A DNA stretch of 64,000 nt from Candidatus Hodarchaeota archaeon (GCA_048887225.1 JBHLJY010000012.1:10710-74709), one strand, 5' to 3'; counted from the first letter of the stretch, positions 12,214 to 62,321 are shown. Notes: generated by a model not told the origin, from the sequence alone. Numbers and translations: made by a program.

Positions 12214-12795
12214 TTAAGCAACCATTATTTCCACTTCTTTTAATCTCTTGATTTTGTCTAATAACTCTTTAAAACCACTTAATTTCATGAGAGTTTGACA
12301 TTCCTCAAGTTCTTTCGGAAATGAATGAATTGTAGGTGGTAAAGCAGGTAACCCTAATGATTCTCGTAAATCTCTCCAATTTTTATGAGCTGGAGCATTT
12401 ACCGGTACTCCATGACCTGTTTCATAGAATAATGCGGATAAATTAAAATGTGATTCTAAAAGGTCACCTTCCTCCACAGCAATATTTCTTAACTTTATTA
12501 TTATGTCCGTAATTGGAATATTTCTTGGACAGCGTTCATAGCACGTATAACAAGTTGAACAAAACCAGATTTTAATATCTTTTAGAACGCTCTCATCACC
12601 TAATAAGGCTCTTCTAACTACAGAACGCGTACTCATAGCAGTTCTTCTACCTGATGGACACCCCCCCGAACATGTCCCGCAGTTTATGCATGAGCGTATT
12701 TGCTCTAAACCAGCATCTACAAATTTCTGCGTAATTTTTGAATTAATTGTGTTGTATATCTTACGTATAATGTACTTCTCTACATTATCGCTCAT
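12214..12795 (-). CDS. hdrC: Heterodisulfide reductase subunit C
   Basis: CINCGTCSGGCPSG and WFCSTCYTCYERCPR motifs. Confidence 0.95.
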   Translation of the reverse strand: MSDNVEKYIIRKIYNTINSKITQKFVDAGLEQIRSCINCGTCSGGCPSGRRTAMSTRSVVRRALLGDESVLKDIKIWFCSTCYTCYERCPRNIPITDIIIKLRNIAVEEGDLLESHFNLSALFYETGHGVPVNAPAHKNWRDLRESLGLPALPPTIHSFPKELEECQTLMKLSGFKELLDKIKRLKEVEIMVA

Positions 12796-19124: not shown

Positions 19125-20360
19125 TTGGGGATCGGTGATTCAAATATTTATTTCTCACAAGAATCAATTAAAGACATAAAGTCTTATATAAATTATTGTT
19201 ATCACTGTTATCGATGTATTAATGTCTGTCCATTATCCCACTTAGGTGTTTTCTTTCCACAAAGGTTAATTGCAGATTTAACCTTCTCTTCAATGGAAGA
19301 TGGTTTAACAAATAATAACATATGGGAATGCCTCACCTGTGGTCAGTGTTCAATTTATTGTCCAATGACATCTAATTCTTCGGGTGTGAGAATACCTGAA
19401 TTAATTTTAGAATTAAGAAAGAAATCACGAGAGAATAAAAAACAATCTGAAAAAATGTTGTATTGTGAAACGCACAACAATATATTTCCATTGCTTACGA
19501 GATTAATGGCGGATAATCCGTTGAATCCGAACAAATTAGATTTTTTAAATGGGACAAAATTGAAGACGGCAGAAACAGGTCCAATAGCGTATTTTGTTGG
19601 ATGTTCACCATTATTACAAGATATTTTTTATAATTTTGATATAAAATATACTGATTCAGCCATTACAATAATCGCATTACTTAATGAAGCTAATTTTGTT
19701 CCAGTTGTTTTAAATGAAAAATGTTGTGGACATGATATATTGTGGGGTCTTGGAGATATTAAAAGGTTTAAAAAACTAGCTGAATATAACGTAAAACTCT
19801 ACAGAGATGCAGGCATTAAAATAGTTATCATAAGCTGTGCCGAAGGATATAGAACATGGAAGTTCGATTATCCAAAAGTGATTGATAATTTTGATTTTGA
19901 AGTATTACATTTTTCAGAATTTTTATTAAGAGAGAAAATTCTTGAAAACAAGCGATTTCCCAAAGTACATAAAATTAAAGTTACTTACCACGATTCTTGT
20001 CGACTTGGTCGCTTAAGTGATAAATTATATGATCCTCCACGGGAATTACTAAGACAAATTCCAAATGTTGAATTAATTGAGATGGAAAATATTAGAGATA
20101 ACGCTCAATGTTGTGGGGTTTCAGCTTTCCGAGGGTGCAATGAATTTACTCACTTTTTAATCCAAAAGCGTATCAACGAAGCAATTGAAACGGGTGCAGA
20201 TTATTTAATCGTTCCATGCTCAAAATGCCAAACACATTTCACTTGTTATATGAATGAACCCTCTATTAATAGAGAGAAGGGAGATTTGAGAGATAAAATA
20301 AGAATAATTGATTTAGCTAGTTTTATAGGGAGGATGTTATTTATTTTCCAAATGAATTAA
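19125..20360 (+). CDS. HdrD-like (4Fe-4S dicluster + two CCG domains) Fe-S oxidoreductase
   Basis: CYHCYRCINVCP, WECLTCGQCSIYCP, YFVGC, EKCCG, TYHDSCRLGR and CCG motifs. Confidence 0.9.
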   Translation: MGIGDSNIYFSQESIKDIKSYINYCYHCYRCINVCPLSHLGVFFPQRLIADLTFSSMEDGLTNNNIWECLTCGQCSIYCPMTSNSSGVRIPELILELRKKSRENKKQSEKMLYCETHNNIFPLLTRLMADNPLNPNKLDFLNGTKLKTAETGPIAYFVGCSPLLQDIFYNFDIKYTDSAITIIALLNEANFVPVVLNEKCCGHDILWGLGDIKRFKKLAEYNVKLYRDAGIKIVIISCAEGYRTWKFDYPKVIDNFDFEVLHFSEFLLREKILENKRFPKVHKIKVTYHDSCRLGRLSDKLYDPPRELLRQIPNVELIEMENIRDNAQCCGVSAFRGCNEFTHFLIQKRINEAIETGADYLIVPCSKCQTHFTCYMNEPSINREKGDLRDKIRIIDLASFIGRMLFIFQMN

Positions 20361-20381
20361 AAATTGCGATATAGGAGAAGA

Positions 20382-23300: not shown

Positions 23301-23495
23301 ACCAAACAAATGGGATTATACACAATTAAAATGAAAAAAGCCCAGATTAATAGTGCCATTTGTAAGGGTTGCGGGTTATGTGTGGCAGAATGTTCGCTAG
23401 GGGCAATTGACCAAAACTTTTTTAGTAAATTGCAAATTAATAAGATGATTGAATTGTTGATTGGATTGGAAACAAAAGCAAAAGAATTTAATTAA
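20382..23495 (+). CDS. Large rearranged HdrA-family flavoprotein (two FAD-binding modules, internal N-terminal-type domain)
   Basis: Two GGGIAG motifs, internal ILICRCG..SCTPRTH..NIRDQ, EAHVKLRPVD and C-terminal ferredoxins. ATG at 20382 follows an AGGAGA SD. Confidence 0.92.
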   Translation: MQKLQSSVLVIGGGIAGIQASLDLTKLGFKVYLVEIKPTIGGTMAQLDKTFPTLDCSLCILAPKMVEIYRNQNIELFTNSYIEKIEGAAGDYRVTMIKMPRYVKEDVCNGCGDCANICPVRGIPSKFDINLKTRGAIFIPFPSSVPPTYIIDETKCLLINYGICNLCARVCTTNAIDFFQKKEEIVLNVGAIVIATGYIQNMPGIYENLAGESRNVLSSMQFERLLSANGPTNGNIIRLDNYERPKSIAFLQCVGSRDFHHPECKKYCSSICCMASAKQAIIVKEHNPEIECYIFSTEIRAKGKNFYEFIERSKHEYNVIYINGKVSLIKNCSENGKLKLFYEDIDEGIVRTSKVDMAILASALFPPKSYYDLLNQLNVRYNEFGFIRDDDLYSLEKKNIFFIGYSRNPKDIPSTVAEASACAAKISERLHIVRFQNVIESKYPPEIPVNPQDDPRVGILICRCGSNIGGIVDVKRVVDYVSKLPYVVYADENMYSCSSDSQKLIKDMILKHNLNRFIVASCTPRTHENLFRNTLREVGLNPYLFELVNIRDQDSWVHQNEPEQATKKACDLIRMYLAKVINLKPLQKIKVEVEKSVLIIGGGIAGIFSAKNLANQGFEVYLIERESILGGRALDFIDLYRLPYIKNDVMNTINELKKKSTVHILLNSEIREIRGYVGNYKVIVKSHSNGVKEHKLNIGTIIVSIGTKQKRVERWHDISEKNPMHVFTQSDFIKINDENIPSFKDATIILCVDQRKNEYNNGNDSKTYCSNVCCNIALMNIEKLFRLNPRAHIHVLYRELQFSDLHAEKIGRDIRKKVLFERYSSIDNIKISKNTNRFKIRYYNVGAQTDIEFITDLLILATPAIPERGTEELAKILKVPTTKDGFLLEAHVKLRPVDFSTDGIFLCGGAHWPKWIDESIIQAYAASGRATMLMANGGIDTECVTAYMNEEKCLGCGRCAEICPYKAIELIDKTKQMGLYTIKMKKAQINSAICKGCGLCVAECSLGAIDQNFFSKLQINKMIELLIGLETKAKEFN

Positions 23496-23510
23496 TAACG
23501 AGTGATTAAT

Positions 23511-23975
23511 ATGTCAAAATCCAGAACGAAAAAATATGAAGAATTTGAACCAAATATATTAGTTTTTTGTTGTAATTGGTGTAGCTATGCAGGAGCGGAT
23601 CTAGCTGGGGTTTCGAGGTTCCAATACCCATCAACTATTCGTATTGTTAGAGTCATGTGTTCGGGCAGAGTTGAGCCTGCATTTATCTTAAGAGCTTTTT
23701 ATAATGGAATTGATGGTGTTATAGTTACAGGATGCCATATAGGTGATTGTCATTATATTAAAGGTAATGAACATGCATATATTCGTTTGGAACATTTACA
23801 AAATCTATTGAAAAAAATTGGAATTGAAGAGGAAAGATTTCTAATCCATCCTATTTCAGCCAGCGAAGGAAAGAAATTTTCTGAATTAATAAAAGAATTT
23901 ACAGAAAAAGTCAAGAAAGAAGGGATTTTAAAAATTGCTAAAAAATTAGGGCTTTTAGAGTTTCAGTATAGTTAA
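23511..23975 (+). CDS. mvhD: MvhD [2Fe-2S] subunit
   Basis: FCCNWCSYAGADLAG, RVMCSGRV and GCHIGDCHY motifs. Confidence 0.95.
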   Translation: MSKSRTKKYEEFEPNILVFCCNWCSYAGADLAGVSRFQYPSTIRIVRVMCSGRVEPAFILRAFYNGIDGVIVTGCHIGDCHYIKGNEHAYIRLEHLQNLLKKIGIEEERFLIHPISASEGKKFSELIKEFTEKVKKEGILKIAKKLGLLEFQYS

Positions 23976-24407: not shown

Positions 24408-25889
24408 CTAACAGTTTTTTAGTATAGTTGGTTTACAATTATTCTTTTTTTCCATTGCGAGTTTTTCGATTAATAATTGACGTTTTCTTACATCTATTTT
24501 AGGATTTAATTTTACCAAACCTTTATCAATCGCTCTATGAAGAAGAAGCTCTCCTTTTTTGGTTCTAGTAATAACTGAAGACCATCCAGAATCTGAACCA
24601 ATCGCTCCTACAGAAATATCTGCAAATTCTGCTGTTAAATCAGAGCAATAATTACAAAAATTCGCAAAGTAAGATCGGCATTCTTTTAATGAAATAGATA
24701 TAATTTCTCCATTAATTAGATTTAGAAATAACCTACCTTTTTTGATATCCATTTTAACGACATCATCAAGCTCTAAATTAAACTTATATTTAATTAAATT
24801 CATCAAATTCTCATAAGTGAATGTTTTCATACAGAATAGACCAATTTTATATTTGATGTTGTCGAACATCCCCAAATTTAATGGCAAATGTTCTGCTTTT
24901 GCAAGAGCTCTAATTTTACATGGAAGTGCAACTATAGCGATTTTCTTATACTTTTTTGTTTTATTAAGTACAGATAGAATCGGAGCATTTGAATAAATGC
25001 TACCTTGGGTTTTATCCAAATATAGCTTGTTCTTAATGATTGCAATCTTAGGTTTCCAAAATTTTCTCGAATGTTTAACAGTTATAACAGCGTCAACTAG
25101 TTTCTCATCTAATAAATAATAAAGTAATGAACTAATTATGCCTCCATCCTGCTTTTTTTCGTTAAATTCATCTATTAAAGTCTTTGCTGAATATATCTTT
25201 TTATAGTATCCAAGGTTTTCCGTATAATTTAAAGAACTTTGAAAACTTTTTTTATAATTATATAATGGCTGATATGGAACTGAATGAGGACAAACACTAT
25301 AACATAAACCACATGTAATACATTCACTCTCATCTACATATACATAATTATCAGTTTGTTCAATAATATCAATTGGACAAATTGATAAACATAGCCCACA
25401 TCTGGTGCAAATACCACTATCATCAAATGTTAAAATCGATTTGAAATAATTTTCTTGAATTAGGTTTGCGTTGCGTTTGATCTGATATTTTTTTTCTAGT
25501 TTCTGTTCCAAAATCGAACTTCTCTCATCATTGTCCAATATAACCTCAGATTCAATGCTCTCATTAATTAATCCTTTATCTTTTAGATTTAAAATCTCAT
25601 AAATCGTATTAATGGAGGGAAAATCAAAAATTTCAACAATTCCCTCCAATGATAATGGTTGTTTTCCTTTTAACTTCTGAATGATGTATTTTCGCTTTGC
25701 TGCTTCATCTAATATCGATTTTAAAATTAAATTGAGGGTTTTTTCATCAAATTTCCCGTGTTCTAAAATACGTTTCCTTGCTTTAAATAAAGATCTAAAC
25801 TGAAAGTCATTTGAAGCCTTAAGGAAAGAAGTTTTCATCTTATCTGGTGGGATTCCTTTATAATTATAGAAATCACTTATTTTAATCAT
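24408..25889 (-). CDS. N-terminal winged-helix-like domain + ferredoxin + FrhB (F420-binding) family protein
   Basis: YIIQKLKGKQPLSLEGIVEIFDFPSINTIYEILNLKDKGLI; two CxxCxxC motifs; QDGGIIS, ALPC, IGLFC and CNYCSDLTAEFADISVG. Confidence 0.85.
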   Translation of the reverse strand: MIKISDFYNYKGIPPDKMKTSFLKASNDFQFRSLFKARKRILEHGKFDEKTLNLILKSILDEAAKRKYIIQKLKGKQPLSLEGIVEIFDFPSINTIYEILNLKDKGLINESIESEVILDNDERSSILEQKLEKKYQIKRNANLIQENYFKSILTFDDSGICTRCGLCLSICPIDIIEQTDNYVYVDESECITCGLCYSVCPHSVPYQPLYNYKKSFQSSLNYTENLGYYKKIYSAKTLIDEFNEKKQDGGIISSLLYYLLDEKLVDAVITVKHSRKFWKPKIAIIKNKLYLDKTQGSIYSNAPILSVLNKTKKYKKIAIVALPCKIRALAKAEHLPLNLGMFDNIKYKIGLFCMKTFTYENLMNLIKYKFNLELDDVVKMDIKKGRLFLNLINGEIISISLKECRSYFANFCNYCSDLTAEFADISVGAIGSDSGWSSVITRTKKGELLLHRAIDKGLVKLNPKIDVRKRQLLIEKLAMEKKNNCKPTILKNC

Positions 25890-26108: not shown

Positions 26109-27545
26109 GTGTTAACAAAAGAAAATATGATAGAATATTTAGAATCTTATAATATAGGGTATGGGTTTCAGGATTTATGTGATTTAGTAATTAACAAAAA
26201 AAATTGTATATTTTGTGGAACATGTGCCTCACTTTGTCCCCGTATTGGGATTATAAAAAATAAACCGACCCTTTTAGAAAGCGATCCAGAATGTTCATTA
26301 TGTTCAAGATACTGTGCGAGAACTTACTTCCCTGAAGAGGTGTTTGAAAGAGAGATTTTCAATAATCAAAATCATCGGGATTTTATCTTAGGTTATTATC
26401 AAAAAGCAATAATAGCAAAAAGTACTGATGAAAGCATATTAAAGGTTGCCCAGAATGGTGGAGTGATAACAACATTACTTATTTATGCTTTGAATAAGGG
26501 ATTAATTGATGGAGTATTGCTTACTAATAGAGATGAAAATTGGTTACCCAAACCTTTTGTTGCGAGAACACCAGAAGAAATACTATCATGTTCAGGTTCA
26601 AAATATACTATAGCCCCTACCTTAATTTCATACAGTGATGCAATTCATGAATATGAACTTGAAAAACTTGCATTTGTAGGTATGCCTTGTCAAATTCTAG
26701 CAGCAAGAAAACTCCAATTATGTCCTCCATTATCAGATAAATTAGGTCAATTTAAAATAATTATTGGAATTTTTTGTTCAGTAAATTATAAATATGATTT
26801 AATAGAAAAGATTTTTGTACAGGATTTAAACAAAAAATTGGAGAATGTTAGTAAATTTGATATTTCAGATGGAATATTGTCAGTTATTTCAAAAGATGGT
26901 AGTATAATAAAACTCTCAACTAAATATATTAAAGAATTCATTTGGCCCAGTTGTCGATATTGTAAAGATTTTACTTCCGAATATGCTGATATCTCAGTTG
27001 GTAATGTAGGTGCTCCCTCTGGAGATTTTAATAGCCTTATTGTACGTTCTGATATAGGTAAATCTTTACTGGATAATGCCATCTCTGAAAAGAGAATTAT
27101 AACAACTAATACAATTGATCTTGCAAAAATTAAAATGGAATCTTTAAGAAAGAAATCAGAAATAACTAAAGTTGATAAAAAGATTATTTCTGCCTTGAGA
27201 TTTTTTAATATCCCTGATCTTGAAGCAAAAGTTTATGCCACGTTAATCTCTTTAGGATATACTAATATTGCTCTGCTTAGTGACGTAATGAAAATGGAGT
27301 ATAAAAAAATCTACAAAGCTTTGGAAAAGTTAAAGCGACGTAAATGGATTGTTGAGTTTAATGGTGGCTACAGAACAATTAATCCAATTCAAGTTATGAA
27401 AAATGAAATAACTAAATTCAAAGCCAATTTAGAAAAAAAAATTAATAAATTCAAATCTGAGGTTTTAAAAGAGTTAGAGATCCTTTTTTTACAAAACAAT
27501 ATTCAGCATATAAAATATAATGAATACAATGATTTTTTCTACTGA
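26109..27545 (+). CDS. FrhB-family protein fused to a C-terminal TrmB-type HTH
   Basis: QNGGVIT, GSKY, VGMPCQ, IGIFC and CRYCKDFTSEYADISVG, then IPDLEAKVYATLISLG...IYKALEKLKRRKWIVE...YRTINP. Confidence 0.88.
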   Translation: MLTKENMIEYLESYNIGYGFQDLCDLVINKKNCIFCGTCASLCPRIGIIKNKPTLLESDPECSLCSRYCARTYFPEEVFEREIFNNQNHRDFILGYYQKAIIAKSTDESILKVAQNGGVITTLLIYALNKGLIDGVLLTNRDENWLPKPFVARTPEEILSCSGSKYTIAPTLISYSDAIHEYELEKLAFVGMPCQILAARKLQLCPPLSDKLGQFKIIIGIFCSVNYKYDLIEKIFVQDLNKKLENVSKFDISDGILSVISKDGSIIKLSTKYIKEFIWPSCRYCKDFTSEYADISVGNVGAPSGDFNSLIVRSDIGKSLLDNAISEKRIITTNTIDLAKIKMESLRKKSEITKVDKKIISALRFFNIPDLEAKVYATLISLGYTNIALLSDVMKMEYKKIYKALEKLKRRKWIVEFNGGYRTINPIQVMKNEITKFKANLEKKINKFKSEVLKELEILFLQNNIQHIKYNEYNDFFY

Positions 27546-27662: not shown

Positions 27663-28082
27663 CTATTTAATTATATCTGTTATGAAACAAGTTTCTACAA
27701 TATGTATACCTTCTATTTGGCTTATTTTCTCTTCAAGTAAAGGATTGAATTGCTCTAACGAGGGGATTTCAACCATTATAAATAGACCACAATCTCCGCT
27801 TAAACGCCAAATATTATTTATCTCATCTATTTTTTTCAATTCTGTTAAAATCCTCTTAATATCCTTGAAGTTTGGCTCAATTTTTACTGTTGCCCTAGTT
27901 TTAGGTTTCGAATTAACCTCATAATCTATTGTAAATCTTATAATTATTCCATCTTCAATTAATTTTTTCACACGACGACGAACTGTAGCTTCTGTTTTCC
28001 CTATTTTGTGAGAAATTTCATTAAAGGAAATTCTACTATCTTGTTTTAATTCCTCAAGTATTTTAAGATCTATTATATCCAT
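27663..28082 (-). CDS. Lrp/AsnC family transcriptional regulator
   Basis: MDIIDLKILEELKQDSRISFNEIS...TVRRRVKKLIEDGII; C-terminal RAM domain. Confidence 0.95.
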   Translation of the reverse strand: MDIIDLKILEELKQDSRISFNEISHKIGKTEATVRRRVKKLIEDGIIIRFTIDYEVNSKPKTRATVKIEPNFKDIKRILTELKKIDEINNIWRLSGDCGLFIMVEIPSLEQFNPLLEEKISQIEGIHIVETCFITDIIK

Positions 28083-29630: not shown

Positions 29631-31682
29631 TTAGTTAATTATTTCACCTTTTCTTTTAATTTCATCAATAATTTCTTCCGATTTCTTTTTTAAGCTAATA
29701 TGATCTATAGTGTCAGCATATTCGACGTCATAACTACAAATACCCTTAATTTCTTCTACTATTTGATTATCTCGATAATATATAAGATCGATAGCTCTTG
29801 ACGGACAGGATGTTACTCAAATCCCACAGCCCTTACATTTTAACTCGTCAACTATAGCTGCATTATCAGGACCTACTTTTATGGCTTGATATTCACATAA
29901 TTTTTCACACCTATGACAACCCATACATAGATATGAGTTAACTTCTACGATAATTAACTCCTGTATTATCGAGTCCTTCGAAAATAAAGTTGCTACCTTA
30001 CTTGCTGCTGCTAATGCCGTCGATACAGAATATGGTATATTTTTTGGTCCAACCGCACATCCACATATATATATGCCAGTATTCTTTGTTTCTTGAGGTT
30101 TTAAACACCCATGTATTTCTGTTATAAATCCATTTGGATCTTTTCCTAATCCAAAGATCTCAACAATTTTATCTGTCGTTATTGATGGAACTATTCCTGT
30201 GGATAAAATAACTAAATCCACGTCAAGATTAATCATATCACCAGTTAAAGTTGAAGATGCATGAATCTTTAATTGGTTTGTTTCTGGATCCTCCTTGATT
30301 TCTCCTACTTTTCCACGAATCATTAAAATACCTAGTTCTCTTGCTTTTCTATAGTATTCTTCATTTCCTTTATCAGGTGTTCTTATATCTATATAGAAAA
30401 TGATAATTTCCATTTCAGGGTATTCTTGCTTTAACAATTGAGCATTTTTAAGAGCAACACATCATCAAACAATTGAACAATACGGATTCCCTTTTAAAGA
30501 TCTCGAACCTACACATTGTATCATCGCAACCTTTTTAGGTGCCTTTCCATCAGAAATTCGACATAATTTGCCTCCTGTTGGTCCAACAGGACTTAACATT
30601 CTCTCCAATTCTATTTGTGTAATAACATTAGGATAAATTCCATAGTTATAGTCATTATTTTCATTAATTTGATATTCATCCCAGCCAATAGCTACGATTA
30701 TTGCTCCAATATTAACATTAATGTATTCAGGTTTTTGATTGAAATCAATTGCATCAGCTACACAATTTTTCTGGCAACTTTTACAACCAATACATGCATC
30801 TTTATCGATAAGAGCAACTTTTGGGACAGCTTGAGGGAAGGGAACATAAATAGCGTTCCTTTTCCCTAAACCCCTATCAAATTCATTAGGGATTTTTATC
30901 GGGCATTTTGTTGTACATAAACCACAGCCAGTACATTTTCTTTCTTTTACATAACGAGGATTTTTTCTAATTTTCACATTGTAATTTCCTGGAATCCCAC
31001 TGAATTCAATAATTTCGCTATAAGTAAATAGATTTATATTTGGGTGTTTATAAGTATTAACCATTATTGGAGCAAGAACTCAAATCGCACAATCGTCTGT
31101 AGGATAAATCCGATCTAACTGTGCCATTTTTCCTCCAATGGTAGGTTCTTTTTCAACTAAATAAACAATAATTCCTTGATTCGCTAGATCTAAGGCAGCA
31201 TTCATACCAGCTATTCCAGCACCTATGACTAACGCTGCTTTTTTTACTGAAATTTTTTTACAAGGGATGATTTCTAAATTACGAGCTCGATTTATACCTG
31301 CTTTTACTAATCTTTTTGCTTTTTCTGTCGCACTTTCTGGATCATCTGAATGAACAAATGAACACTGTTCTCGAAGATTAACCATTTGAAAATAGTATGG
31401 ACTTAATCCAGTTTCATCCAAAACACTCCTATATGTTTCTTCATGAATTTTTGGCGTACAAGCAGCAACAACTATTCTGTTTAAATCTAATTGTAATATA
31501 TCTTTTTTAATGATTTCCTGCCCTGGATCACTACATGTAAAATCATTACATCTAGAAATAATTACATTGGGTAATGTTATAACAAAATCCCTCACGATAA
31601 TACAATCAATCGTTGCACCAATATTAACACCTCATCTACAAATATATACTCCAATTCGAATATTGGTCTGTTCTTCAGACAT
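29631..31682 (-). CDS. hdrA: Selenocysteine-containing HdrA, 683 aa, five in-frame UGA (codons 17, 201, 406, 407, 622)
   Basis: Three track ORFs plus flanks lie in one frame. UGA at 31632, 31080, 30465, 30462 and 29817 give ICRUG, DCAIUVL, CSIVUUC and CGIUVTSCP, where the paralogs have Cys. Confidence 0.9.
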
Positions 31683-32106
31683 TTACTCCACCCTTGTAAA
31701 ACATCACCGTTTTTTAAAATTTATAATAAATTATTAAAAAATTTGTACAATTGAGGTTTTTTGTAAAAAAAATGGTCAAATTTAAATTATCATTATCTTG
31801 ACTAATCAATTAATCTTATTGTAGTAAAACTTTAACAGATAACTCAATTAATTTACCCTGATTGTTATACTTAAGATATCTATGTTTTTAAATCGTAATT
31901 TTTTCCCTAATTTCATCAATTTAATACCAATTAGATCTCAATATGACAGAAATATAAATTATCTGATAAGAAAAGTTTTAATTCGTTTGATAAATTTATT
32001 TGTCAAATCTATTCAAAATTTCTATAGAGTAAAAAACCTAAATGATAGACCTCTCTTTTCACCATTCAGATATGAAAAAATTTATGTTCAATATGGTACA
32101 TAAATT

Positions 32107-32249
32107 GATCGAAACCATACATATGTTTATATAATATGACATCTATATTTATCTTGTGGATCATAAAGTTTGCTAAATTAGTCATTGAATTTTTATTTTT
32201 GATCATTTATTGATTTAATAATAAATTCAAAGGAAGAGAGAGGTAGATC
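32107..32249. promoter_or_regulatory. GATC motifs upstream of the HTH-HdrA-MvhD gene
   Basis: GATC at 32107, 32159, 32201 and 32246. Confidence 0.4.
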
Positions 32250-32253
32250 AAGT

Positions 32254-34803
32254 TTGGATATTTATTCTATAATTTCTCATCCATTTAGGCGAAAAATTCT
32301 ATTACTTTTAGAAATTGAAGGCTATATTCCTTATAGTGACTTAATGGAAAAATTAGGATTAGATACAACGGGGCAGCTTAATTTTCATCTGAAAAAATTA
32401 GGAACCCTCATCAATAAGGATAGAAAATCCTACTATCTTACTGAAGATGGAAAAAGAGTAATTAAAATAATGAATATAAATAAGCGTATTTTATTTGGAG
32501 AGAATATGGATGAATATTTAAATTCGAAAGGAAGCGAGATAACCCGTGTAGGAGTTATAATTTGTAATTGTAATACAGAAATTTCAAATGTTTTTAATAT
32601 CATATCACTTCAGAATTATATCAATAAATTAAAGAATGTAGTATCTGTAAAGGTTTTTGAAAATTTATGTCAAGAGAAGAACTTTAAGAAGATTACAGAT
32701 TGGGTGAGGGAGAACTTCTTAAATAAAATAATTATTGCTGCGTGTTCCCCAAAAACACATCAGCATCTTTTTGAACGAATTTTTGATGATGTTATTGACC
32801 ATTCAAATATAGAAATCGCTAATATAAGAGAGCAATGTGCTTGGGTGCATCAGTCTAACTCTGATCATATCGATACCGCTCTTACTTTAGAAAAAGCTCG
32901 ACTACTAATTGAAGCGGCAATTGAACGAGTTACATTGCAAAAAATCGTAAAAGTTAAGAGAGTAGAAGTAGAAAAAAGTTGTGCCATTTTAGGAGGAGGG
33001 ATTGCAGGAATGACTCTTGCTTTAAATTTAGCACGCGCAGGCATTAAAGTACATCTTATTGAAAAATCACCTACATTAGGAGGTAAAGTCGCTAGATGGC
33101 ACCGAATATCAAATATCGGGGATTGTTCAATATGCTTTATCTCGGAATTAATAGGAGAATTAGTGAATGAAAAAAATATAAAAATACAAACAAATACGGA
33201 ATTTGTTGATGTATCAGGAGGAGTTGGAGATTTTTCTATAGAGTTGATTAAAAAACCTCGATATGTTGATGTGAAAAAATGTACTGGTTGTAAACAATGT
33301 ATCGATGTTTGTAGTATAGAAAAACCTAATCAATATGAATATGGTTTAACAAATCGAAAAATCATCTATATTCCTTTTATTCATTCTTACCCATACGCTC
33401 CATTAATTGATGAAGCTGACCTTAAAAATTGTCTCAACTGTAGAATATGTGAAAGAGCATGCGTAAATAAAGCAATTGATCTGGATCAAAAACCAAAAAG
33501 AGTAAAAATCAAGGTTGGTGCAAAAGTTATAGCAATTGGTTCTGATCTTTACTTTGATTTAGAAAAATATCATTATAATCCTCAGAATGATATTATAACA
33601 ACACCTGAATTCGAGCGAATGCTTTCATCAGATGGTTTTACCGATGGCGAGATATTAAAGGTCTCTGATAAAATCCCTCCAAAAACTATTTCAATTATCC
33701 AATGTGTGGGACCTTCAGATAGCAAATGTGAATTTAATTATATCTTGGCGTTAAAATATTTAGAATCTATTAAACAGAAAATTCCTAATTGTATAGTTAA
33801 TGTCTTTTATGATTTGAGTCAATTAAGAGAAAATAATAATTTTTTATTTAAATCTACAGATCCTAGATTTCACTATATAAATAAGCTTGAAATTATTGAT
33901 AGAAATAATCAAAAATTTGTTAAAGCAGATGCAGAGGAATTTCAGAGTGATTTAATAATTCTAAATATAACGATGGTACCAAATAAAGATTTAAAATCAC
34001 TGCGAAAAACAATGGATTTTACATTGGATGACTATGGCTTTATGAGCGAAGATACATTAACATCTGGAATCTATGGAGTTGGTACGATTTTTGGCCAATT
34101 AAATTATAATTCTACGATATCAACTGCGAACAATGTAGCTTTAAAAATAATTTCATTATTATCGAAAGATTTTTTAATCGCGGAATTTAGTGGAATTGAT
34201 ATCAACGAAGAATTATGCGGTTTATGTGGATTATGTTTGAAAACATGTCCATATAATGCTCTAACTATCGAATCAGATGTTATTACTATTGATAAATTTA
34301 AATGTAAAGGATGTGGCACTTGTGTAAGTGTTTGTCCTACAAATGCCATTGAAATGAATCTTGATACTTCTGAAAAAATTATTAAAACTATAGAAGTTTT
34401 TTCAAAATTTAAAAAAAGACCAAAAATTATCGCTTTTTGTTGTCGTTCATGTGGTTATGCTGCTGCTGATGATGCGGGTTTAAAAAAAAAATATTATATT
34501 CCAAATACATTTATCGTTCGAGTGCCATGTACCGGTCGTATTGATACAAATTTTATCATTAAATCTTTCGAAAATGGTTTTGATGGAGTAATAATTATCG
34601 GTTGTAGAAAAAATTCTTGTAGATACATTGATGGAATACAAAAAGCAAAAAAAAAAGTTCAATTATTAAAGAATATACTAAGATCGGGGTATAAAGAACG
34701 AATACTTCTTGAACATATGAATGCTGTTGAGGGGAATAAATTTGCTGAGATTGTTAATGAATTTTATGATAAAATAAAGGAGGAGATTAAATTTGAAGCC
34801 TAG
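32254..34803 (+). CDS. Fusion: ArsR-type wHTH + divergent HdrA + MvhD
   Basis: SHPFRRKILLLL...YSDLMEKLGLDTTGQLNFHLKKLG...YYLTEDGK; then GVIICNC, ACSPKTH, NIREQCAWVH, GGGIAG; C-terminal FCCRSCGYAAAD, RVPCTGR, GC..SCRY. Confidence 0.92.
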   Translation: MDIYSIISHPFRRKILLLLEIEGYIPYSDLMEKLGLDTTGQLNFHLKKLGTLINKDRKSYYLTEDGKRVIKIMNINKRILFGENMDEYLNSKGSEITRVGVIICNCNTEISNVFNIISLQNYINKLKNVVSVKVFENLCQEKNFKKITDWVRENFLNKIIIAACSPKTHQHLFERIFDDVIDHSNIEIANIREQCAWVHQSNSDHIDTALTLEKARLLIEAAIERVTLQKIVKVKRVEVEKSCAILGGGIAGMTLALNLARAGIKVHLIEKSPTLGGKVARWHRISNIGDCSICFISELIGELVNEKNIKIQTNTEFVDVSGGVGDFSIELIKKPRYVDVKKCTGCKQCIDVCSIEKPNQYEYGLTNRKIIYIPFIHSYPYAPLIDEADLKNCLNCRICERACVNKAIDLDQKPKRVKIKVGAKVIAIGSDLYFDLEKYHYNPQNDIITTPEFERMLSSDGFTDGEILKVSDKIPPKTISIIQCVGPSDSKCEFNYILALKYLESIKQKIPNCIVNVFYDLSQLRENNNFLFKSTDPRFHYINKLEIIDRNNQKFVKADAEEFQSDLIILNITMVPNKDLKSLRKTMDFTLDDYGFMSEDTLTSGIYGVGTIFGQLNYNSTISTANNVALKIISLLSKDFLIAEFSGIDINEELCGLCGLCLKTCPYNALTIESDVITIDKFKCKGCGTCVSVCPTNAIEMNLDTSEKIIKTIEVFSKFKKRPKIIAFCCRSCGYAAADDAGLKKKYYIPNTFIVRVPCTGRIDTNFIIKSFENGFDGVIIIGCRKNSCRYIDGIQKAKKKVQLLKNILRSGYKERILLEHMNAVEGNKFAEIVNEFYDKIKEEIKFEA

Positions 34804-35557
34804 ATTTCTAATTTCTTCTTTAACTAGTTGTAGTGGTTGTATTTCTTCATTAGTAACATTAGATATTTTCCCACAATTTCTGGAAAGAACAAAAGTTCAA
34901 TATTTTAATTTTATCTCAGATACTAAAGAAATTAAAGAATGTGATATCGCATTAATCGAGGGATGTGTGAGTGAACCTCCACAGATTAGTCTCCTTAAAA
35001 TTATTAGGAAAAATGCGAAAAAAATTTATAGTCTGGGTTCTTGTGCTGCGTTTGGAGGTATATTAAGTCTTTCAGAAAAAAAATCCGCAGAACCAATATC
35101 CGAATATATTGAGATTGATGGTTTTTTCCCAGGGTGTCCACCTCCCTCTAAATTATTAGGTAATACTTTAATAAAATTAATTGAAAATATCGAGAGCCCT
35201 ATAATTCCGCCTAAAAAGAATCTATGCGCAACCTGTCCATTGAGAGATATTAATAACTTTAATTTTGAAACAGAAATAACAAAAATATACCCTAATCCTA
35301 ATGAGATTATTACGCCTGAAGAAAATTTAATTTGTTTTTTAAAAAATGGGATTTTGTGTTTAGGACCAATTACACGAGAAGGATGTGAAAATATTTGTAT
35401 TGCACATGGTATTCCATGTGAGGGCTGTATGGGTTCTGTTTCAAAAGATTTTTTTGCGGATATAATCAATTTTTTAAGCTTAATTAAAATTTCTGATAAA
35501 TTAAAGAATTATAAGGGTATTTTTTATAGATTTTCAAAACCCAAATTTAAAGAGTGA
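34793..35557 (+). CDS. [NiFe] hydrogenase small subunit, MvhG-like
   Basis: SCSGC, EGCV, LGSCAAFGG, PGCPP and CLGPITREGC...CEGCMG motifs. Confidence 0.9.
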   Translation: MKPRFLISSLTSCSGCISSLVTLDIFPQFLERTKVQYFNFISDTKEIKECDIALIEGCVSEPPQISLLKIIRKNAKKIYSLGSCAAFGGILSLSEKKSAEPISEYIEIDGFFPGCPPPSKLLGNTLIKLIENIESPIIPPKKNLCATCPLRDINNFNFETEITKIYPNPNEIITPEENLICFLKNGILCLGPITREGCENICIAHGIPCEGCMGSVSKDFFADIINFLSLIKISDKLKNYKGIFYRFSKPKFKE

Positions 35558-36864
35558 AATGGTTGAAAAAAGTAATTGATATTTGTACGAGAGTTGAAGG
35601 TCATGGCAATGTAAACATTTTTCTCGAAAATCAAAACGAAGAAATTTCGGAAGTAAATTTTGAAATCTCTATATTTCGAGGATTTGAAAATATATTATTA
35701 AGAAAAGAATTATTAGACATTCCTAAAATAATATCACGCGTGTGTGGGTTATGTTATGCATCTCAATCAATTGCTAGTTGTAAAGCTATAGAAAATTTAT
35801 ATGATATAGAAGTTCCAGAGCAGTCTATTCTTTTAAGACGGCTATTATTAACTGGTGAATTAATAAAATCACATTCCATGCATTTCTTTTTTCATTCATT
35901 ACCAGATTTATTAGAAATTTTTAATATTTTAGAGAATACACCATCGCCATATGAAATAATTAATTACGATCTCCATTTGACAACAAATTTCTATGAATTA
36001 ATAAAAATCGGAAATGAAATCAATAAAATATTTGGTGGAAGGGCAGTTCATTGTATTACTCAAGTTCCAGGAGGAAATCTTTATTTCCCTTCCAGAAAAA
36101 ATATTACTATTGCTCGGAAATATTTACAAAAAGCAATTTTTAGTTTGGAATGGATAATTGAAAAGTTTATTGAATTGTTTTCAGCACAAACTCCTCCTAT
36201 TGACTATGAACTTCCAAATTGTACGTTTTTTGGATTACATAGCCATGGTAAGTATGACAGATATTCTGGAATTTTAGGAATAAAGCAATTTAATCACAAA
36301 ATCATTAATTTTTTAGATAAAAATTATTCAAAATATTTAGATAAAGATCCAGATCTACGAGGTATTAATTTTTTTATGGGAAAAAATATTTTAGTTGGAC
36401 CTCTTGCTAGACAAAAAATAATTGAGGATTATGGAAAACCAGAAATTTCAACATACTTGAGTTATTTTGATAATTCGTGGCAATATAATATTTTATTTTC
36501 AACCTTCATTAAATTATTGGAAATGTATATGGAGGCGAAACTAGGTTTAGAAATTTTACAAAATCCTATGTTAGATAATAAAATTTCCTTACCTACGCTT
36601 AAATCGATAAAAAATTCAGATGGCATTGGGGTTGTAGAAGCCCCAAGAGGGACATTAATGCATCATTACACATTAAACAGAAATAACGAAATTGATGAAA
36701 TAAAGCTTTACATTGCTACTGAAATCAACTTACCGCTTATAAATATAATGATTACTGATTACGCAAGGAAATTATATGAAAAACATGATATTAATTTAGT
36801 AAAGGAAAAAATCCAGAAGATAATTAGAGCTTTTGATCCATGTATTTCATGTGCAACACATTAA
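35554..36864 (+). CDS. [NiFe] hydrogenase large subunit, group 3-like, with no C-terminal extension
   Basis: TRVEGHG, RGFE, RVCGLC and EAPRG motifs; ends DPCISCATH-stop. Confidence 0.92.
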   Translation: MKWLKKVIDICTRVEGHGNVNIFLENQNEEISEVNFEISIFRGFENILLRKELLDIPKIISRVCGLCYASQSIASCKAIENLYDIEVPEQSILLRRLLLTGELIKSHSMHFFFHSLPDLLEIFNILENTPSPYEIINYDLHLTTNFYELIKIGNEINKIFGGRAVHCITQVPGGNLYFPSRKNITIARKYLQKAIFSLEWIIEKFIELFSAQTPPIDYELPNCTFFGLHSHGKYDRYSGILGIKQFNHKIINFLDKNYSKYLDKDPDLRGINFFMGKNILVGPLARQKIIEDYGKPEISTYLSYFDNSWQYNILFSTFIKLLEMYMEAKLGLEILQNPMLDNKISLPTLKSIKNSDGIGVVEAPRGTLMHHYTLNRNNEIDEIKLYIATEINLPLINIMITDYARKLYEKHDINLVKEKIQKIIRAFDPCISCATH

Positions 36865-36894: not shown

Positions 36895-37917
36895 ATGATT
36901 GATTTTTTTACTAAGAATGAAACAAAAGACGACAAACTCGAAGACATCTGTGAAGTATATCTTCTTTATTTTGATGAATCTAAAGGTCCAATCCCAATTC
37001 TTATCTATCCTGATGAATCTATAAAAAATAATCCTGAAAAAATGCGATTAATTAATATACATCCAATTTGGTTTTTGGATATAAAAAAGCATGAAAATTT
37101 TAATCGCATCGATTTAGAGTATGAAGGAAAAATGTTTTTTGCTAAAAAATTCTTTGTAAATTCGAAAAGAAAAAAGAAAAGAGCTGGATTAGGAACTACT
37201 ACTCCAGAAACAATTATCTTAATTATTGCTCTTTCTAATGATATTGACTTATTTGGAAATTTGCTTCTAAATAAAATTACTGAGGCTATTATTACAAATT
37301 TTGGTAGTAATTTATATCAGGTGATTGAATCGGAAATTGTTAAATATAATTTGGTGAAAACTCCAAAATTAAGAGAAATTGTTACTAAAGGAGATTACTT
37401 AAAGATGAGGCTTTCCAATTTAATAAAGAAAATTTGTAATGAATTCTTCCTATCTTTCATAGAACAGATTGATGCTACATCTATTAAATTGCAGAAAGCT
37501 TTATCGTATTTCATGTTAAAAGGGATTTTTTTAAACAAAAGATTATTAAATAGAGAAAAAAAACAGTTTTCAATCACAGAGCTTTTTGAATCGACAAAAA
37601 ATGATATTAACAAAATAGGACAGCAAACTTTATTTAAATTTATGAATTTCAAAATTATTCAAGATTCAAGCGAGATAGAGATTAAAGTAAAAAACATCTC
37701 CAAAAAATTTATAGAAAATTTGAGAACCAAAATCACGTACGTAAAAGAATTTTTTGAAGATGATCTTTTAAATGAAAAAATAGATTACTGGCATCCCGAA
37801 GAGGAAATTCTTATAATCTTTCCAATTATTCCTGGAATTAGTGATTACATATTTTATATTATTGGAAATGCCGATAGAAATATATTATTTTCAAAAAAAA
37901 TTGAAATAAGAAGATGA
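36895..37917 (+). CDS. Hypothetical protein with uDENN/longin-like N-terminus
   Basis: VYLLYFDESKGPIPILIYP resembles the hhhhFD..xGP..hh.YP opening of uDENN/longin domains. Confidence 0.55.
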   Translation: MIDFFTKNETKDDKLEDICEVYLLYFDESKGPIPILIYPDESIKNNPEKMRLINIHPIWFLDIKKHENFNRIDLEYEGKMFFAKKFFVNSKRKKKRAGLGTTTPETIILIIALSNDIDLFGNLLLNKITEAIITNFGSNLYQVIESEIVKYNLVKTPKLREIVTKGDYLKMRLSNLIKKICNEFFLSFIEQIDATSIKLQKALSYFMLKGIFLNKRLLNREKKQFSITELFESTKNDINKIGQQTLFKFMNFKIIQDSSEIEIKVKNISKKFIENLRTKITYVKEFFEDDLLNEKIDYWHPEEEILIIFPIIPGISDYIFYIIGNADRNILFSKKIEIRR

Positions 37918-40156: not shown

Positions 40157-40723
40157 TTATTTATTATTTATGCTTGCTATATCCTCCTTTTTTTCATAAT
40201 CACCAATACCTACAAGTTTATCAAACTCAGTACTCTTTAACAAAGTTCTAATTTCTTCTTCAGCTTCGGGGGAACGATGAGTTGTAGGGGGTACTCTACT
40301 CAGATTATATGATTCTCTCAGGTTATTCCACTTCTTATCATTAATAGGAACTCCATGCCCCCATTTATAAAGAAATCCGCATAAAGCTTTATGTGGGCCT
40401 TGCATGATACCCTTTTGAACTGCTAAATTTCTCAAGAAAATAATCATATCTGTAACTGGCACACCTCGAGGACATCTTTCAAAGCAGGTATAACATGTCG
40501 AGCAAAACCACAATTCTTTATCTGAAAGTACTTCATCAAGTCCTAATTGAGCTTTTCTTATTAAAGATCTTGTTCTCAAAGCAGTCCTTCTTCCCGAAGG
40601 ACATCCTCCAGTACAAGTACCACATTGAATACATGACCCAATTTCTAATAATCCCGCGTCTCTCAATAAATTAGCTAATTCATCAGTGAATTCTGTAATT
40701 TTATCAGACTTTAATTCTTCCAT
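40157..40723 (-). CDS. hdrC: Heterodisulfide reductase subunit C (orphan copy)
   Basis: CIQCGTCTGGCPSG and WFCSTCYTCFERCPR motifs. Confidence 0.95.
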   Translation of the reverse strand: MEELKSDKITEFTDELANLLRDAGLLEIGSCIQCGTCTGGCPSGRRTALRTRSLIRKAQLGLDEVLSDKELWFCSTCYTCFERCPRGVPVTDMIIFLRNLAVQKGIMQGPHKALCGFLYKWGHGVPINDKKWNNLRESYNLSRVPPTTHRSPEAEEEIRTLLKSTEFDKLVGIGDYEKKEDIASINNK

Positions 40724-42419: not shown

Positions 42420-45134
42420 TTAAATTATTGGAAGAGAAAAGTAAAATCTGCTGCCTTTATCTTTCCCTTCAGATTCTGCCCAAATTTTTCCACCATGCAA
42501 TTCCACGATTTTTTTAGAAATATATAATCCAAGTCCAGATCCTTTTATATCAATATCCCAACCTTCACCATATCTTTCAATCTTACCAAATTGTTTAAAT
42601 AATTTGCTTTTCTCCTCTTTGGTGAATCCAATTCCTTTATCTTCTATACAAATTACATAAAATTTTTCTTTTATTTCTGATTTAATCGTTATCTCTCCAC
42701 CAGGAGGAGTGTATTTAATGGCGTTTGTTAATAAGTTTGAAACAACTTCATACATTTTCTCTTTATCGAACGAAGCTGTTAAATATTCGTGAATATTTAA
42801 TATGATTTTCTGATTTCTAAGTTCCAACATTCCCCGCAAATCTCGCAAAACAAATTTAATTAGAAAAGTTAAATCTTCTGTTGATTTATTTAACTCAAGA
42901 AGTCCTTGTTCTAATCTCGAACTTTCAAGAAGTGCATTAATATTTTCTTCCAAACGTATGCCTCCTTCCTTTATATCTTCTATAATTGAGATCATATCTG
43001 TATCTAATTTGGAAGAGTGGAGTGTGAGTAAGAGATCAGTAAAGCCTTTAATTGCGATAAGAGGTGTCTTTAGTTCATGTGAGGTTCTAGATAATAACTC
43101 CGTCTTAAGCTTATTTTGTTCCTCTAAATGTTGTTGTACTTGCCATCTTCTCTGCTCTATCTCAATTGCGTCGGATATTAAAAATAATACTAATACATCT
43201 TGGTGGTCTAGATATGGATTTTCTCGATGAAAAACACATATTCCACTATTATATTCTTCTTCTTGTGACTTAATTAATTTACCAAAACAACCTTTTGCTT
43301 TTTTCTCTTTAATATATCGATCAGTCATAGCATAGTTAGTTTCATTTATATTAATAAATGTTTGAGTATAATCGTGATCTGCTTGAAACAATTCGCTAAT
43401 AATGAAATGATTTTCAAATTCTTCAGAATCTAAAATTAAACTCTCTTTATCACTTGACATTAATTGGTATTTTTCAATTCCATTTTGTATTTGTCGATAA
43501 CAATATAATACAACTTCTGCATTTAATAATTTACAACAAGTTTCAAGTAACATTTCAATATTGTTTTGGACATCTGTGGTGAAATTCAAAAAATTTACAT
43601 TTAATTCGTAAATAAGCCTCTCATACATCTTTTTCTCTGTGATATCATCCAGCCACATAACAAAACCTATTAATTCTCCTTTATCGTTGTATTGATTCAA
43701 TCTGTTGCCTTTGACCCATTTTAGATTTCCATTTTTATCATATAGTCTAAATTCAACTTCTTCAGTCTCAGTTGCTTTATAAAACGTTTTAATATCTTCA
43801 GGATGAATGATCTTTTCAAAAATCGTTTTATCTAAAGTTTTTTCTTTCTTGTAGCCCAGAATATTTAATAACTTAGGGTTAGTATATTTAATATTTTTCA
43901 CTCTAAAATCATATTCCAATATTCCCATTAATGATTGCTCCGTAATCATTCTAAATTTTTTTTCAGAATCTTTTAGTTTTTGTTCAGTGATCTTTAAATC
44001 TGTAATATCTGTCCACGAACCAATAGTCTCTATTGGGTTTCCGTTTTCGTCTTTAATTAGTTTAGCTTCATCACGCATCCAATGATAAGTTCCGTCTTTA
44101 AATTTAAAGCGATAGTCGTAGATTATATTTCCCTTTTCAGGTAATATTGAGAGTTTTGATAAAACTTCTTCTGTATCTTCTGGATGAATATTATTTAGCC
44201 AAAAATCTGAATATTTTATGAAGTCTTCAGATATATAACCTGTTTGAGCCTCTACATTTTCACTAATAAATGTAGCACTGTAATCCCCTGATGCTTTAGA
44301 AGTATAAATCATCATTGGACTTGATGAAATAAGATATTTAAATCGTTCTTCAGATTCTTTTAATTTTTGATCCTTCATTTTTCTTTCAGTTATATCTCTT
44401 GAAATAGTAAGACCTTTTACTAATCCATCCTTATTTCTAAATGCTCTGCCTCTAACTTCTATCCAAATATAAGTCCCATCTTTCTTTCTATATCTTAATT
44501 CTGCCTTTCCTTCACCATATTTTAAACGTTCTTTTATAAGATTTGCTATCTCGTTTGCATTGTCAGGATGGATAAATTTTAAAAATGGCTTCCCCATTAA
44601 ATCCTTTTTTGAATATCCTAATACTCTTTTGTGAACTTCTTCATTAATAAATTCAAATCTTAATTTCTCGTTAAAAACTGCAATCAAATCGTTTGCGTGT
44701 TCTGAAATTACTCTATAAGTCTCTTCACTTAGTTCTAAATTCTTGTATTTGGATAGATCTTTTAGAATTAAAAGCAATTTTTTTTGGTGATTATCATCTC
44801 TGAATGGTTTTATTTTACATTCAAACCACTTAAATTCACCGTTTATGTTTTTAATTCTCAGTTCTTCGTAAACAGCTTCAATGTCTACGCTTTTCTTTAA
44901 TACGGTAAGAAATTTATTTGAATCATCTGGATACATAAAATCCAAAATCGATTGTTCGATTAAATCTTTGCTTGAATATCCTAATGATTTCAGAAATAGC
45001 GGTTCATTAATATATTCAAATCTGAAAAAATCGTGGGATTCAACGATAGCAATTAAATCGTTGATATTTTCAATAATTAATGGATATATATTAAAAGTGT
45101 TAGGTTTTAAACCAATCATAGTTTTCTCTTCCAC
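42420..45134 (-). CDS. Multi-PAS sensor histidine kinase
   Basis: Four PAS/PAC repeats; H-box SHELKTPL; NLLTNAIKYT; DKGIG; GSGLGL. Confidence 0.95.
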   Translation of the reverse strand: MEEKTMIGLKPNTFNIYPLIIENINDLIAIVESHDFFRFEYINEPLFLKSLGYSSKDLIEQSILDFMYPDDSNKFLTVLKKSVDIEAVYEELRIKNINGEFKWFECKIKPFRDDNHQKKLLLILKDLSKYKNLELSEETYRVISEHANDLIAVFNEKLRFEFINEEVHKRVLGYSKKDLMGKPFLKFIHPDNANEIANLIKERLKYGEGKAELRYRKKDGTYIWIEVRGRAFRNKDGLVKGLTISRDITERKMKDQKLKESEERFKYLISSSPMMIYTSKASGDYSATFISENVEAQTGYISEDFIKYSDFWLNNIHPEDTEEVLSKLSILPEKGNIIYDYRFKFKDGTYHWMRDEAKLIKDENGNPIETIGSWTDITDLKITEQKLKDSEKKFRMITEQSLMGILEYDFRVKNIKYTNPKLLNILGYKKEKTLDKTIFEKIIHPEDIKTFYKATETEEVEFRLYDKNGNLKWVKGNRLNQYNDKGELIGFVMWLDDITEKKMYERLIYELNVNFLNFTTDVQNNIEMLLETCCKLLNAEVVLYCYRQIQNGIEKYQLMSSDKESLILDSEEFENHFIISELFQADHDYTQTFININETNYAMTDRYIKEKKAKGCFGKLIKSQEEEYNSGICVFHRENPYLDHQDVLVLFLISDAIEIEQRRWQVQQHLEEQNKLKTELLSRTSHELKTPLIAIKGFTDLLLTLHSSKLDTDMISIIEDIKEGGIRLEENINALLESSRLEQGLLELNKSTEDLTFLIKFVLRDLRGMLELRNQKIILNIHEYLTASFDKEKMYEVVSNLLTNAIKYTPPGGEITIKSEIKEKFYVICIEDKGIGFTKEEKSKLFKQFGKIERYGEGWDIDIKGSGLGLYISKKIVELHGGKIWAESEGKDKGSRFYFSLPII

Positions 45135-62317: not shown

Positions 62318-62321
62318 AAAA

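Follow-up and report, generated by a model that had tools for sequence, protein, structure and literature searches.

A 64,000-nucleotide stretch of DNA from Candidatus Hodarchaeota archaeon (GCA_048887225.1 JBHLJY010000012.1:10710-74709; hereafter, the window) contains, at positions 32254-36864, an operon predicted to encode an Asgard-specific cytoplasmic [NiFe] hydrogenase complex, composed of an MvhA-like large subunit, an MvhG-like small subunit, and an HdrA-MvhD fusion protein that begins with a winged helix-turn-helix (wHTH). We lean towards the reading, slightly on the probable side in our estimate, that this complex is a working, HdrBC-independent H2:ferredoxin hydrogenase that is also the repressor of its own operon and would thus be bifunctional in the way of the flavoenzyme PutA. 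The source genome (3.27 Mb, ~30% GC) is that of an AT-rich, Lokiarchaeia-type Asgard archaeon.

The operon consists of three open reading frames (ORFs) in a row on the plus strand, 32254-34803 (gene 1, 849 amino acids [aa]), 34793-35557 (gene 2, 254 aa) and 35554-36864 (gene 3, 436 aa), with overlaps of 11 and 4 nt. An earlier note on this DNA had described an overlapping operon of this composition, lacking hdrB and hdrC and divergent from a selenocysteine-containing hdrA (Sec-hdrA), and both the ORFs with their domains and the layout agreed with that description. The features of the three genes are as follows.

32254..32490, plus strand: ArsR-like wHTH (DUF7347), gene 1 aa 1-79 (Pfam, PDB 1y0u, AlphaFold2 [AF2], Foldseek)
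32545..34413, plus strand: HdrA body, gene 1 aa 98-720 (PDB HdrA, E 3e-109)
33700..33741, plus strand: site of the lost [4Fe-4S] cluster HA4, QCVGPSDSKCEFNY (alignments)
34414..34803, plus strand: MvhD domain ([2Fe-2S]), gene 1 aa 721-849 (PF02662, E 6e-37; PDB MvhD, E 7e-27)
34793..35557, plus strand: gene 2, MvhG-like small subunit (PF01058; PDB 5odc_E, E 4e-29, in an alignment that includes the cluster Cys motifs)
35554..36864, plus strand: gene 3, group 3 (3c-like) [NiFe] large subunit; L1 has Gln in place of His, and the C-terminal extension is missing

Gene 1 joins a predicted ArsR-like winged helix to an HdrA-MvhD body

Pfam and NCBIfam placed along gene 1, in this order, a DUF7347 wHTH (aa 2-72), an HdrA2-like body (aa 98-843) and an FlpD/MvhD domain (aa 725-843). 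The DUF7347 match had an E value of 7e-11 and 47 bits versus a cut-off of 27.6, and the wHTH matched in sequence the Archaeoglobus ArsR-like repressor of PDB 1y0u (E 0.013). In the AF2 model, built on a 24-sequence alignment, the predicted local distance difference test score (pLDDT) was ~90 for aa 11-70, the order of elements was helix-helix-strand-helix-helix-wing-helix, and a disordered linker at aa 82-94 separated the wHTH from HdrA. Foldseek superposed the wHTH on the DNA-binding repressors YodB, CadC and NolR and on an ArsR, and the domain after it on the HdrA N-terminal domain (2.1 A); the model of aa 1-240 also gave a weak full-length match to solved Rex-family repressors (E 2.6e-4, root mean square deviation ~16 A). 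Pfam, 1y0u, AF2 and Foldseek thus agree with the earlier assignment to the ArsR type, and the N-terminal helix-turn-helix (HTH) is modeled as a genuine winged helix of the ArsR-like kind, attached by a flexible linker. A homodimer prediction for two copies of aa 1-97, run with an alignment, scored 0.18, a value that speaks neither for nor against dimerization.

The domain is as well conserved as the enzyme to which it is attached, its mean identity over 120 relatives being 0.75 versus 0.71-0.76 in the catalytic domains. The recognition helix TGQLNFHLKK is almost invariant, with G40, N43, H45 and L46 invariant, and the HTH, whose conservation had been proposed as a check, was kept in all orthologs found.

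The HdrA body has lost the cluster that feeds HdrBC

The HdrA body comprises an N-terminal cluster domain, a flavin adenine dinucleotide (FAD)/thioredoxin-reductase domain with a DCSIC pair, an inserted ferredoxin and a C-terminal ferredoxin. Alignment to solved HdrA bore out the earlier description, in which the N-terminal Cys domain, the FAD motif and the ferredoxins were retained and a cluster motif and the GPKDIP loop were lost: QCVGPSDSKCEFNY, with a 6-residue deletion, stands in place of the canonical CVGSRx..YCSRVCC stretch, and GQLNYN in place of GPKDIP. Over the 120 relatives, all Fe-S ligands were invariant except those of HA4, and the leftover Cys 484 and Cys 492 were not conserved; the eight Cys of the ferredoxin-exit domain were invariant, and MvhD Cys 729/730/733/759/784/789 were conserved. 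The features that define the HdrA dimer, namely, the DCSIC pair and the N-terminal cluster ligands, were kept as well. Gene 1 does not have all six [4Fe-4S] clusters of a group 3c HdrA, the HA4 ligands being replaced, and its best match, the NCBIfam HdrA2 model NF040770, gave 575 bits, far under the cut-off of 1100.

In published structures, HA4 passes the high-potential electron from FAD to HdrC/HdrB, while the exit of the low-potential electron is by way of the N-terminal cluster and inserted ferredoxin domain (PMC9012536, PMC13580544, PMC12350162), and HA4 is the only path described from FAD to HdrC (PMC9012536, PMC13580544). With the cluster that supplies HdrC/HdrB gone, the alignments indicate that the HdrA of gene 1 is cut off from HdrBC with its ferredoxin branch kept. 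Synteny revealed neither hdrB nor hdrC inside the operon, here or in any of >40 loci, and no histidine kinase gene inside the operon in any of these loci. The hdrB/hdrC genes found elsewhere in the window (4981-5826, 11222-12795 and 40157-40723), and another set on contig C35, each adjoin their own canonical HdrA or hydrogenase.

The large subunit keeps its catalytic ligands and ends at the L2 histidine

The Cys motifs for three Fe-S clusters in gene 2 aligned with those of MvhG. For gene 3, the best matches were those of group 3 (the ShyA, VhuA and FrhA models and PDB 7t2r_D, 5odc_F [MvhA] and 5xf9_D); the group 3 assignment is based on these profile and PDB matches, which do not point to group 2. 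Its L1 motif reads RVCGLCYASQ, and a stop codon directly follows DPCISCATH, so that MvhA in 5odc is longer at the C terminus by ~25 residues. Both peculiarities, already recorded in the earlier note, proved to be traits of the family, since Gln replaces the L1 His in 118 of 120 large-subunit relatives and 119 of the 120 end exactly at the L2 His. The Ni-Fe cysteines C64, C67, C430 and C433, the RxEGH Glu and the PRG Arg were invariant in these relatives. The large subunit evolves faster than the HdrA fusion (55-70% versus 66-78% identity).

The other two large subunits of the genome are split VhuA/VhuU selenoproteins, both with a canonical L1. The Vhu-type enzyme of the same genome has retained a tail of 21 aa, and a HycI-like protease gene is present in one copy, so the tail loss is specific to gene 3. 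The missing extension had been taken as a mark of a sensor, as in HoxC/HupV; that likeness holds, but the trait is not specific to sensors, for the tail is also missing in the catalytic groups 4c, 4e and 4g (PMC7294309).

A conserved dyad lies on the promoter of the operon

Upstream of gene 1, in the region that separates it from the divergent Sec-hdrA, two copies of a dyad were found, one perfect and the other near-perfect and 150 nt further downstream.

29631..31682, minus strand: canonical HdrA with five selenocysteine codons (in-frame TGA), the divergent neighbor; the intergenic region with the distal palindrome is common to both genes
31986..32007, unstranded: distal operator candidate, TTTGATAAATTTATTTGTCAAA, a perfect palindrome of 22 nt between the divergent Sec-hdrA and gene 1 (k-mer conservation screen)
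32126..32134, plus strand: TATA-box-like TTTATATAA of the operon promoter (read directly)
32138..32153, unstranded: proximal operator candidate, GACAT-N6-TTATC, which departs from the core GAYAA-N6-TTRTC at one position; 3 nt 3' of the TATA box
32169..32185, plus strand: further conserved promoter/5' untranslated region element TTTGCTAAATTAGTCAT (by-eye alignment with loci L095, L094, L093, L090 and L087)

The promoter reads TTTATATAA (32126-32134), ATA, and GACAT-CTATAT-TTATC (32138-32153). The pattern TTTGAYAA-N6-TTRTCAAA was present with at most 2 mismatches in 25 of 37 other orthologous upstream regions, versus 0.30 expected from shuffles, and the exact core GAYAA-N6-TTRTC had 45 sites in 31 of 38 upstream regions versus 0.44 expected; 45 of the 57 sites in 496 kb of retrieved loci were upstream of gene 1. 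A TATA box directly abutted a core site in 16 of the 38 promoters (0.37 expected). The core was kept without the AT flanks in the higher-GC loci L119 and L120, and in loci without Sec-hdrA the dyad still accompanied gene 1; genus g11 carries two palindromes 230-400 nt upstream of Sec-hdrA. Even at locus L127, whose fusion is 35% identical, there are near-identical perfect palindromes, TTAGACAAGAARATTTGTCTAA, at L127:775-796 and L127:11555-11576, which bracket GCV-H, NuoE/F/G-like genes, a small-subunit-like gene, the HTH-HdrA-MvhD fusion, and the G and A genes; one of them lies 66 nt ahead of the first gene of the long operon.

The TATA-plus-core pattern occurs once in the 3.27-Mb genome, at the promoter of this operon. 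The perfect 22-nt palindrome has 2 matches in the genome, the second of which (C7:118907), between a DUF998 gene and a GNAT gene, showed no link and was discarded as a further target. Searches of the genome for a wider regulon stayed at chance level, both for the 22-nt pattern with at most 2 mismatches (34 versus ~31 expected) and for the exact core (33 versus 21-36 expected), and two 2-mismatch dyads upstream of a tandem-HdrA operon (window 18430 and 18539) were rejected as targets because they fell within this background. As no gene but the HTH fusion is a constant companion of the dyad, self-regulation by an HdrA dimer is the simplest reading of these patterns, with Sec-hdrA as a possible second target. 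Archaeal repressors block polymerase recruitment from a position in the region of the TATA box and transcription start site (TSS).

GATC was also counted upstream of gene 1 in the orthologous promoters (window 32100-32250 at this locus): 67 occurrences versus 34.5 expected, 29 of the 67 at -150 to -100, and GATC pairs ~40 nt apart often bracketed the TATA box and the operator.

Family distribution and order of changes

The same HTH, HdrA and MvhD architecture was seen in more than 100 clusters of 849-aa proteins (66-78% identity), every one of them labelled Asgard. The operon of this fusion with G and A is kept in >40 loci of several Asgard families, with the large subunit down to 33% identity, which answers the question of architecture and synteny raised earlier, and the divergent Sec-hdrA/gene 1 layout recurs in many relatives. 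A 50%-identity library of 1.8 billion proteins yielded only ~7 clusters with a fusion of an HTH to the HdrA N-domain.

The family census covered 63 genomes of the window's family, each at least 95% complete. The fusion was present in 46 of the 63, always in single copy, and the tail-less large subunit accompanied it in 45 of these 46; in G218, the one remaining genome, the sole full-length non-Vhu subunit found was of another type and on another contig. A Vhu-type enzyme was also present in 42 of the 46, and no Vhu-type, group 4 or [FeFe] hydrogenase was detected in the near-complete genomes G199 (99% complete), G163 and G264. An FrhB-family gene stands 5' of gene 1 in genus g11, and NuoE/F/G-like genes stand 5' of the fusion gene in one distant relative. 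Some family genomes (G177:C378, G202:C39, G218:C163 and G227:C16) contain a third, unsplit [NiFe] large subunit type of 449 aa, related only distantly to gene 3. As to whether the cultured MK-D1 uses the gene 3-type enzyme, its single MvhA adjoins hdrB/hdrC and is of the other type; an 'MvhD'/MvhG/FrhB-like cluster (DSAG12_01148-01150) is also present.

The HA4 cysteines are present in the most distant fusion members (35-44% identity, plus L121), together with the GPK loop in the database proteins, and the partner large subunits of L121 and L127, the readable cases, keep the L1 His and a 7-9-aa tail; in other intermediate lineages the tails measure 5-11 aa. Since distant HTH-bearing members thus keep the HA4 Cys, the L1 His and the tail, the sequences place the HTH fusion first, followed by HA4 loss, then the change of the L1 His to Gln, and then tail loss.

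A probable enzyme that may regulate its own operon

In the reading that we favor, electrons would move from the NiFe site through three [4Fe-4S] clusters to the [2Fe-2S] cluster of MvhD, FAD, the N-terminal cluster and the inserted ferredoxin clusters, and finally to ferredoxin, the net reaction being H2:ferredoxin exchange without a heterodisulfide branch, with FrhB-like or NuoEF-like partners added in some lineages. The HdrA of gene 1, which retains its DCSIC pair and N-terminal cluster, would on that account be an obligate dimer, which could set two wHTH domains on the dyad and block the recruitment of RNA polymerase, resulting in autorepression; the complex may also control the divergent Sec-hdrA. 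Either the flavin redox state or the position of the HdrA mobile arm, which carries the N-terminal domain, would alter DNA binding, and expression would track the status of H2 or ferredoxin, much as PutA is switched by reduction of its FAD; the switch is probably the redox state of the flavin. A DNA-binding domain on a flavoenzyme and operators in its own promoter, a combination characteristic of a regulator of the PutA kind, are both predicted at this locus.

We favor such an enzyme-repressor because the Ni-Fe ligands and the ferredoxin-exit clusters are invariant, hypDEF are present in the window, no other target was seen in this genome, some genomes have it as their sole hydrogenase, partner genes are co-operonic in relatives, and the catalytic groups 4c, 4e and 4g are tail-less too. 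Several observations weigh against it. Seven of the 38 upstream regions lack an exact core site, and the dyad could be bound by another factor; the L1 Gln, the tail loss, the loss of HA4 and the GPK loop, and the fast-evolving large subunit could mean weakened catalysis; and the sole-hydrogenase cases G199, G163 and G264 rest on metagenome-assembled genomes. A more specific proposal is that the complex is a self-contained H2-responsive transcription factor, whose own Ni-Fe site splits H2, reduces the flavin and moves the wHTH-bearing HdrA arm, so that the operator is left or engaged; we regard this as possible but somewhat doubtful.

The earlier note went further, with a complex repurposed as a one-component H2/redox-responsive regulator. 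The wHTH, the dyad in the operon's own promoter and the uncoupling from HdrBC support part of that proposal; a sensor instead of an enzyme is not supported. A pure sensor of this kind, in which turnover only sets the redox state of the flavoprotein, the sole job is the transcription switch, and Vhu-type enzymes exchange H2, appears unlikely to us. It would account for the large subunit being tail-less as in the group 2b/2d sensors, for the L1 Gln, for HA4 and the GPK loop having been lost step by step from complete ancestors, for a large subunit less conserved than the HTH fusion, for the Vhu-type enzyme alongside in 42 of 46 fusion genomes, and for the distal dyad in a region shared with Sec-hdrA. 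However, no regulon was seen in the genome, core sites being at chance and the TATA-plus-operator pattern being confined to the operon's own promoter, so that regulation alone would be without output in this genome, and the dyad stays with gene 1 where Sec-hdrA is absent. Also against a pure sensor are the three genomes with no other detectable hydrogenase of any class, the eight invariant Cys of the ferredoxin-exit domain, the co-operonic FrhB-like or NuoEF-like partners, the tail-less catalytic groups, and the HTH fusion, which appears older than HA4 loss.

A purely metabolic hydrogenase, with a structural or docking winged helix that does not bind DNA and a dyad that is the site of a separate regulator, seems to us a shade less probable than the pure sensor. 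All catalytic ligands are kept, winged helices are protein-protein modules in many archaeal and eukaryotic complexes, and the DUF7347-NrdD-like and TrmB HTH-FrhB fusions of the same genome (see below) could make the HTH a lineage habit. On the other hand, the wHTH matches DNA-binding repressors in both sequence and fold, with invariant residues in the recognition helix; the HTH fusion is the sole constant companion of the dyad in several families, down to a 35%-identical relative; and the dyad sits on the TATA/TSS region, where archaeal repressors act. That the complex is a classical bifurcating Mvh-Hdr enzyme recruiting HdrBC from elsewhere is highly improbable, for although hdrB/hdrC sets exist in the window and on contig C35 and distant HTH-bearing relatives keep the HA4 ligands, all four of these ligands are gone in the subfamily with the two residual Cys not conserved, the only described path from FAD to HdrC is HA4, and the operon lacks hdrBC in >40 loci while the other sets stand beside their own canonical HdrA or hydrogenase.

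Neighboring genes and other HTH-fused redox proteins

Two further features were recorded, one next to the operon and one elsewhere in the genome.

36895..37917, plus strand: gene 4, Asgard-only 340-aa protein, encoded 3' of the hydrogenase genes at roughly every second orthologous locus
Contig C2, L001:4600-6582, plus strand: DUF7347-NrdD-like fusion

Gene 4 had no match in Pfam and NCBIfam searches, and a structure search gave a weak likeness to folliculin/NPR2-type and Arf-fused proteins (TM 0.43-0.45); whether it is part of the hydrogenase system is uncertain. A PAS histidine kinase gene is located at window 42420-45134, 5.5 kb away from the operon.

The Vhu-type set of the window (61007-63626 and 63663-63812, both plus strand) encodes a small subunit (436 aa) and a VhuA (434 aa) terminating ahead of L2, while a VhuU-like peptide, encoded separately, has Sec in FDCULSCAAH and then a 21-aa tail; hypF, hypE and hypD adjoin the set (55266-60858). 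Downstream of the second Vhu copy, on contig C35, lie hdrC and hdrB, and no VhuU was found beside this copy. At 19125-23975 (plus strand), an operon encodes an HdrD-like HdrC-HdrB fusion (411 aa), a tandem double HdrA (1043 aa) and an MvhD (157 aa).

HTH-fused redox enzymes seem to be a habit of this genome. In a divergent FrhB-family pair at 24408-25889 (minus strand) and 26109-27545 (plus strand), the second protein has a C-terminal TrmB-type HTH (Pfam E 2e-8), and an Lrp/AsnC regulator gene lies nearby at 27663-28082. The second DUF7347 wHTH of the genome is fused to an NrdD-like protein (anaerobic ribonucleotide reductase family; 660 aa), upstream of which a TATA box precedes CTTGTTAAC...TTTATCATA, a sequence reminiscent of the right half of the hydrogenase operator.

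Comparison with known systems

HdrA-MvhD fusions and multiple HdrA copies in Asgard archaea (PMC11237513), Asgard group 3c hydrogenases (PMC11291895, PMC7015854) and Sec-HdrA (PMC11227280) have been described. Our literature searches retrieved no description of an HTH-bearing HdrA, of DUF7347, or of a DNA-binding domain linked to a hydrogenase, including ArsR in Asgard archaea. We know of no molecular H2 sensor in archaea, and bacterial H2 sensors signal through kinases. If the complex is indeed an H2-responsive transcription factor, it would be the first hydrogenase to read out directly on DNA and, to our knowledge, the first archaeal H2 sensor identified; a DNA-binding electron-transfer subunit of a hydrogenase would be new and would couple expression very directly to H2/ferredoxin status. 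The host belongs to the Lokiarchaeia-type Asgard archaea, and H2-based syntrophy is central to current models of eukaryogenesis. The family also offers an HdrA that naturally does without the HdrBC branch, of use in studies of flavin-based bifurcation, as well as a large subunit of group 3 whose maturation would involve no C-terminal extension. The definition of both operator and protein is sufficient for direct electrophoretic mobility shift assays, DNA affinity purification sequencing and cryo-electron microscopy.

The MvhAGD-HdrABC complex of methanogens (PDB 5odc, 8rvu and 9sw2) has homologous MvhA, MvhG, MvhD and HdrA modules, and its FAD, N-terminal cluster, DCSxC pair and both ferredoxin domains are likewise found in the Asgard complex. 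The latter differs by the added wHTH, the fusion of MvhD to HdrA, the absence of HA4, the GPKDIP loop and operonic HdrBC, and a large subunit that is ~30% identical, has Gln at the position of the L1 His and lacks the C-terminal extension. The HdrA-MvhD order of gene 1 is the same as in HdrA2 of Methanosarcina HdrA2B2C2; in contrast to HdrA2, gene 1 lacks HA4 and the HdrB2C2 partners and has a wHTH and an attached hydrogenase. In the sensory HoxBC/HupUV (groups 2b and 2d; HoxJ-HoxA), the large subunit naturally lacks the C-terminal extension, as in gene 3, and here, too, a link between hydrogenase and transcription is proposed. However, those proteins are bacterial, belong to group 2 and signal by a histidine kinase and a response regulator, whereas the Asgard complex is of group 3 and carries the wHTH on the enzyme itself.

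The wHTH of gene 1 resembles ArsR/SmtB and Rex-type repressors in fold and sequence (1y0u, YodB, CadC, NolR) and likewise has a dyad as its putative target; its sensor part, unlike theirs, is not a small ligand-binding domain but a 750-residue Fe-S flavoprotein wired to a hydrogenase. The closest functional analogy is PutA of enterobacteria, a flavoenzyme with its own DNA-binding domain that represses the divergent putA-putP promoter, with regulation confined to its own locus and flavin reduction as the switch. The two proteins are unrelated, in that PutA uses a ribbon-helix-helix domain and switches by membrane binding, whereas redox switching of gene 1 is only inferred.

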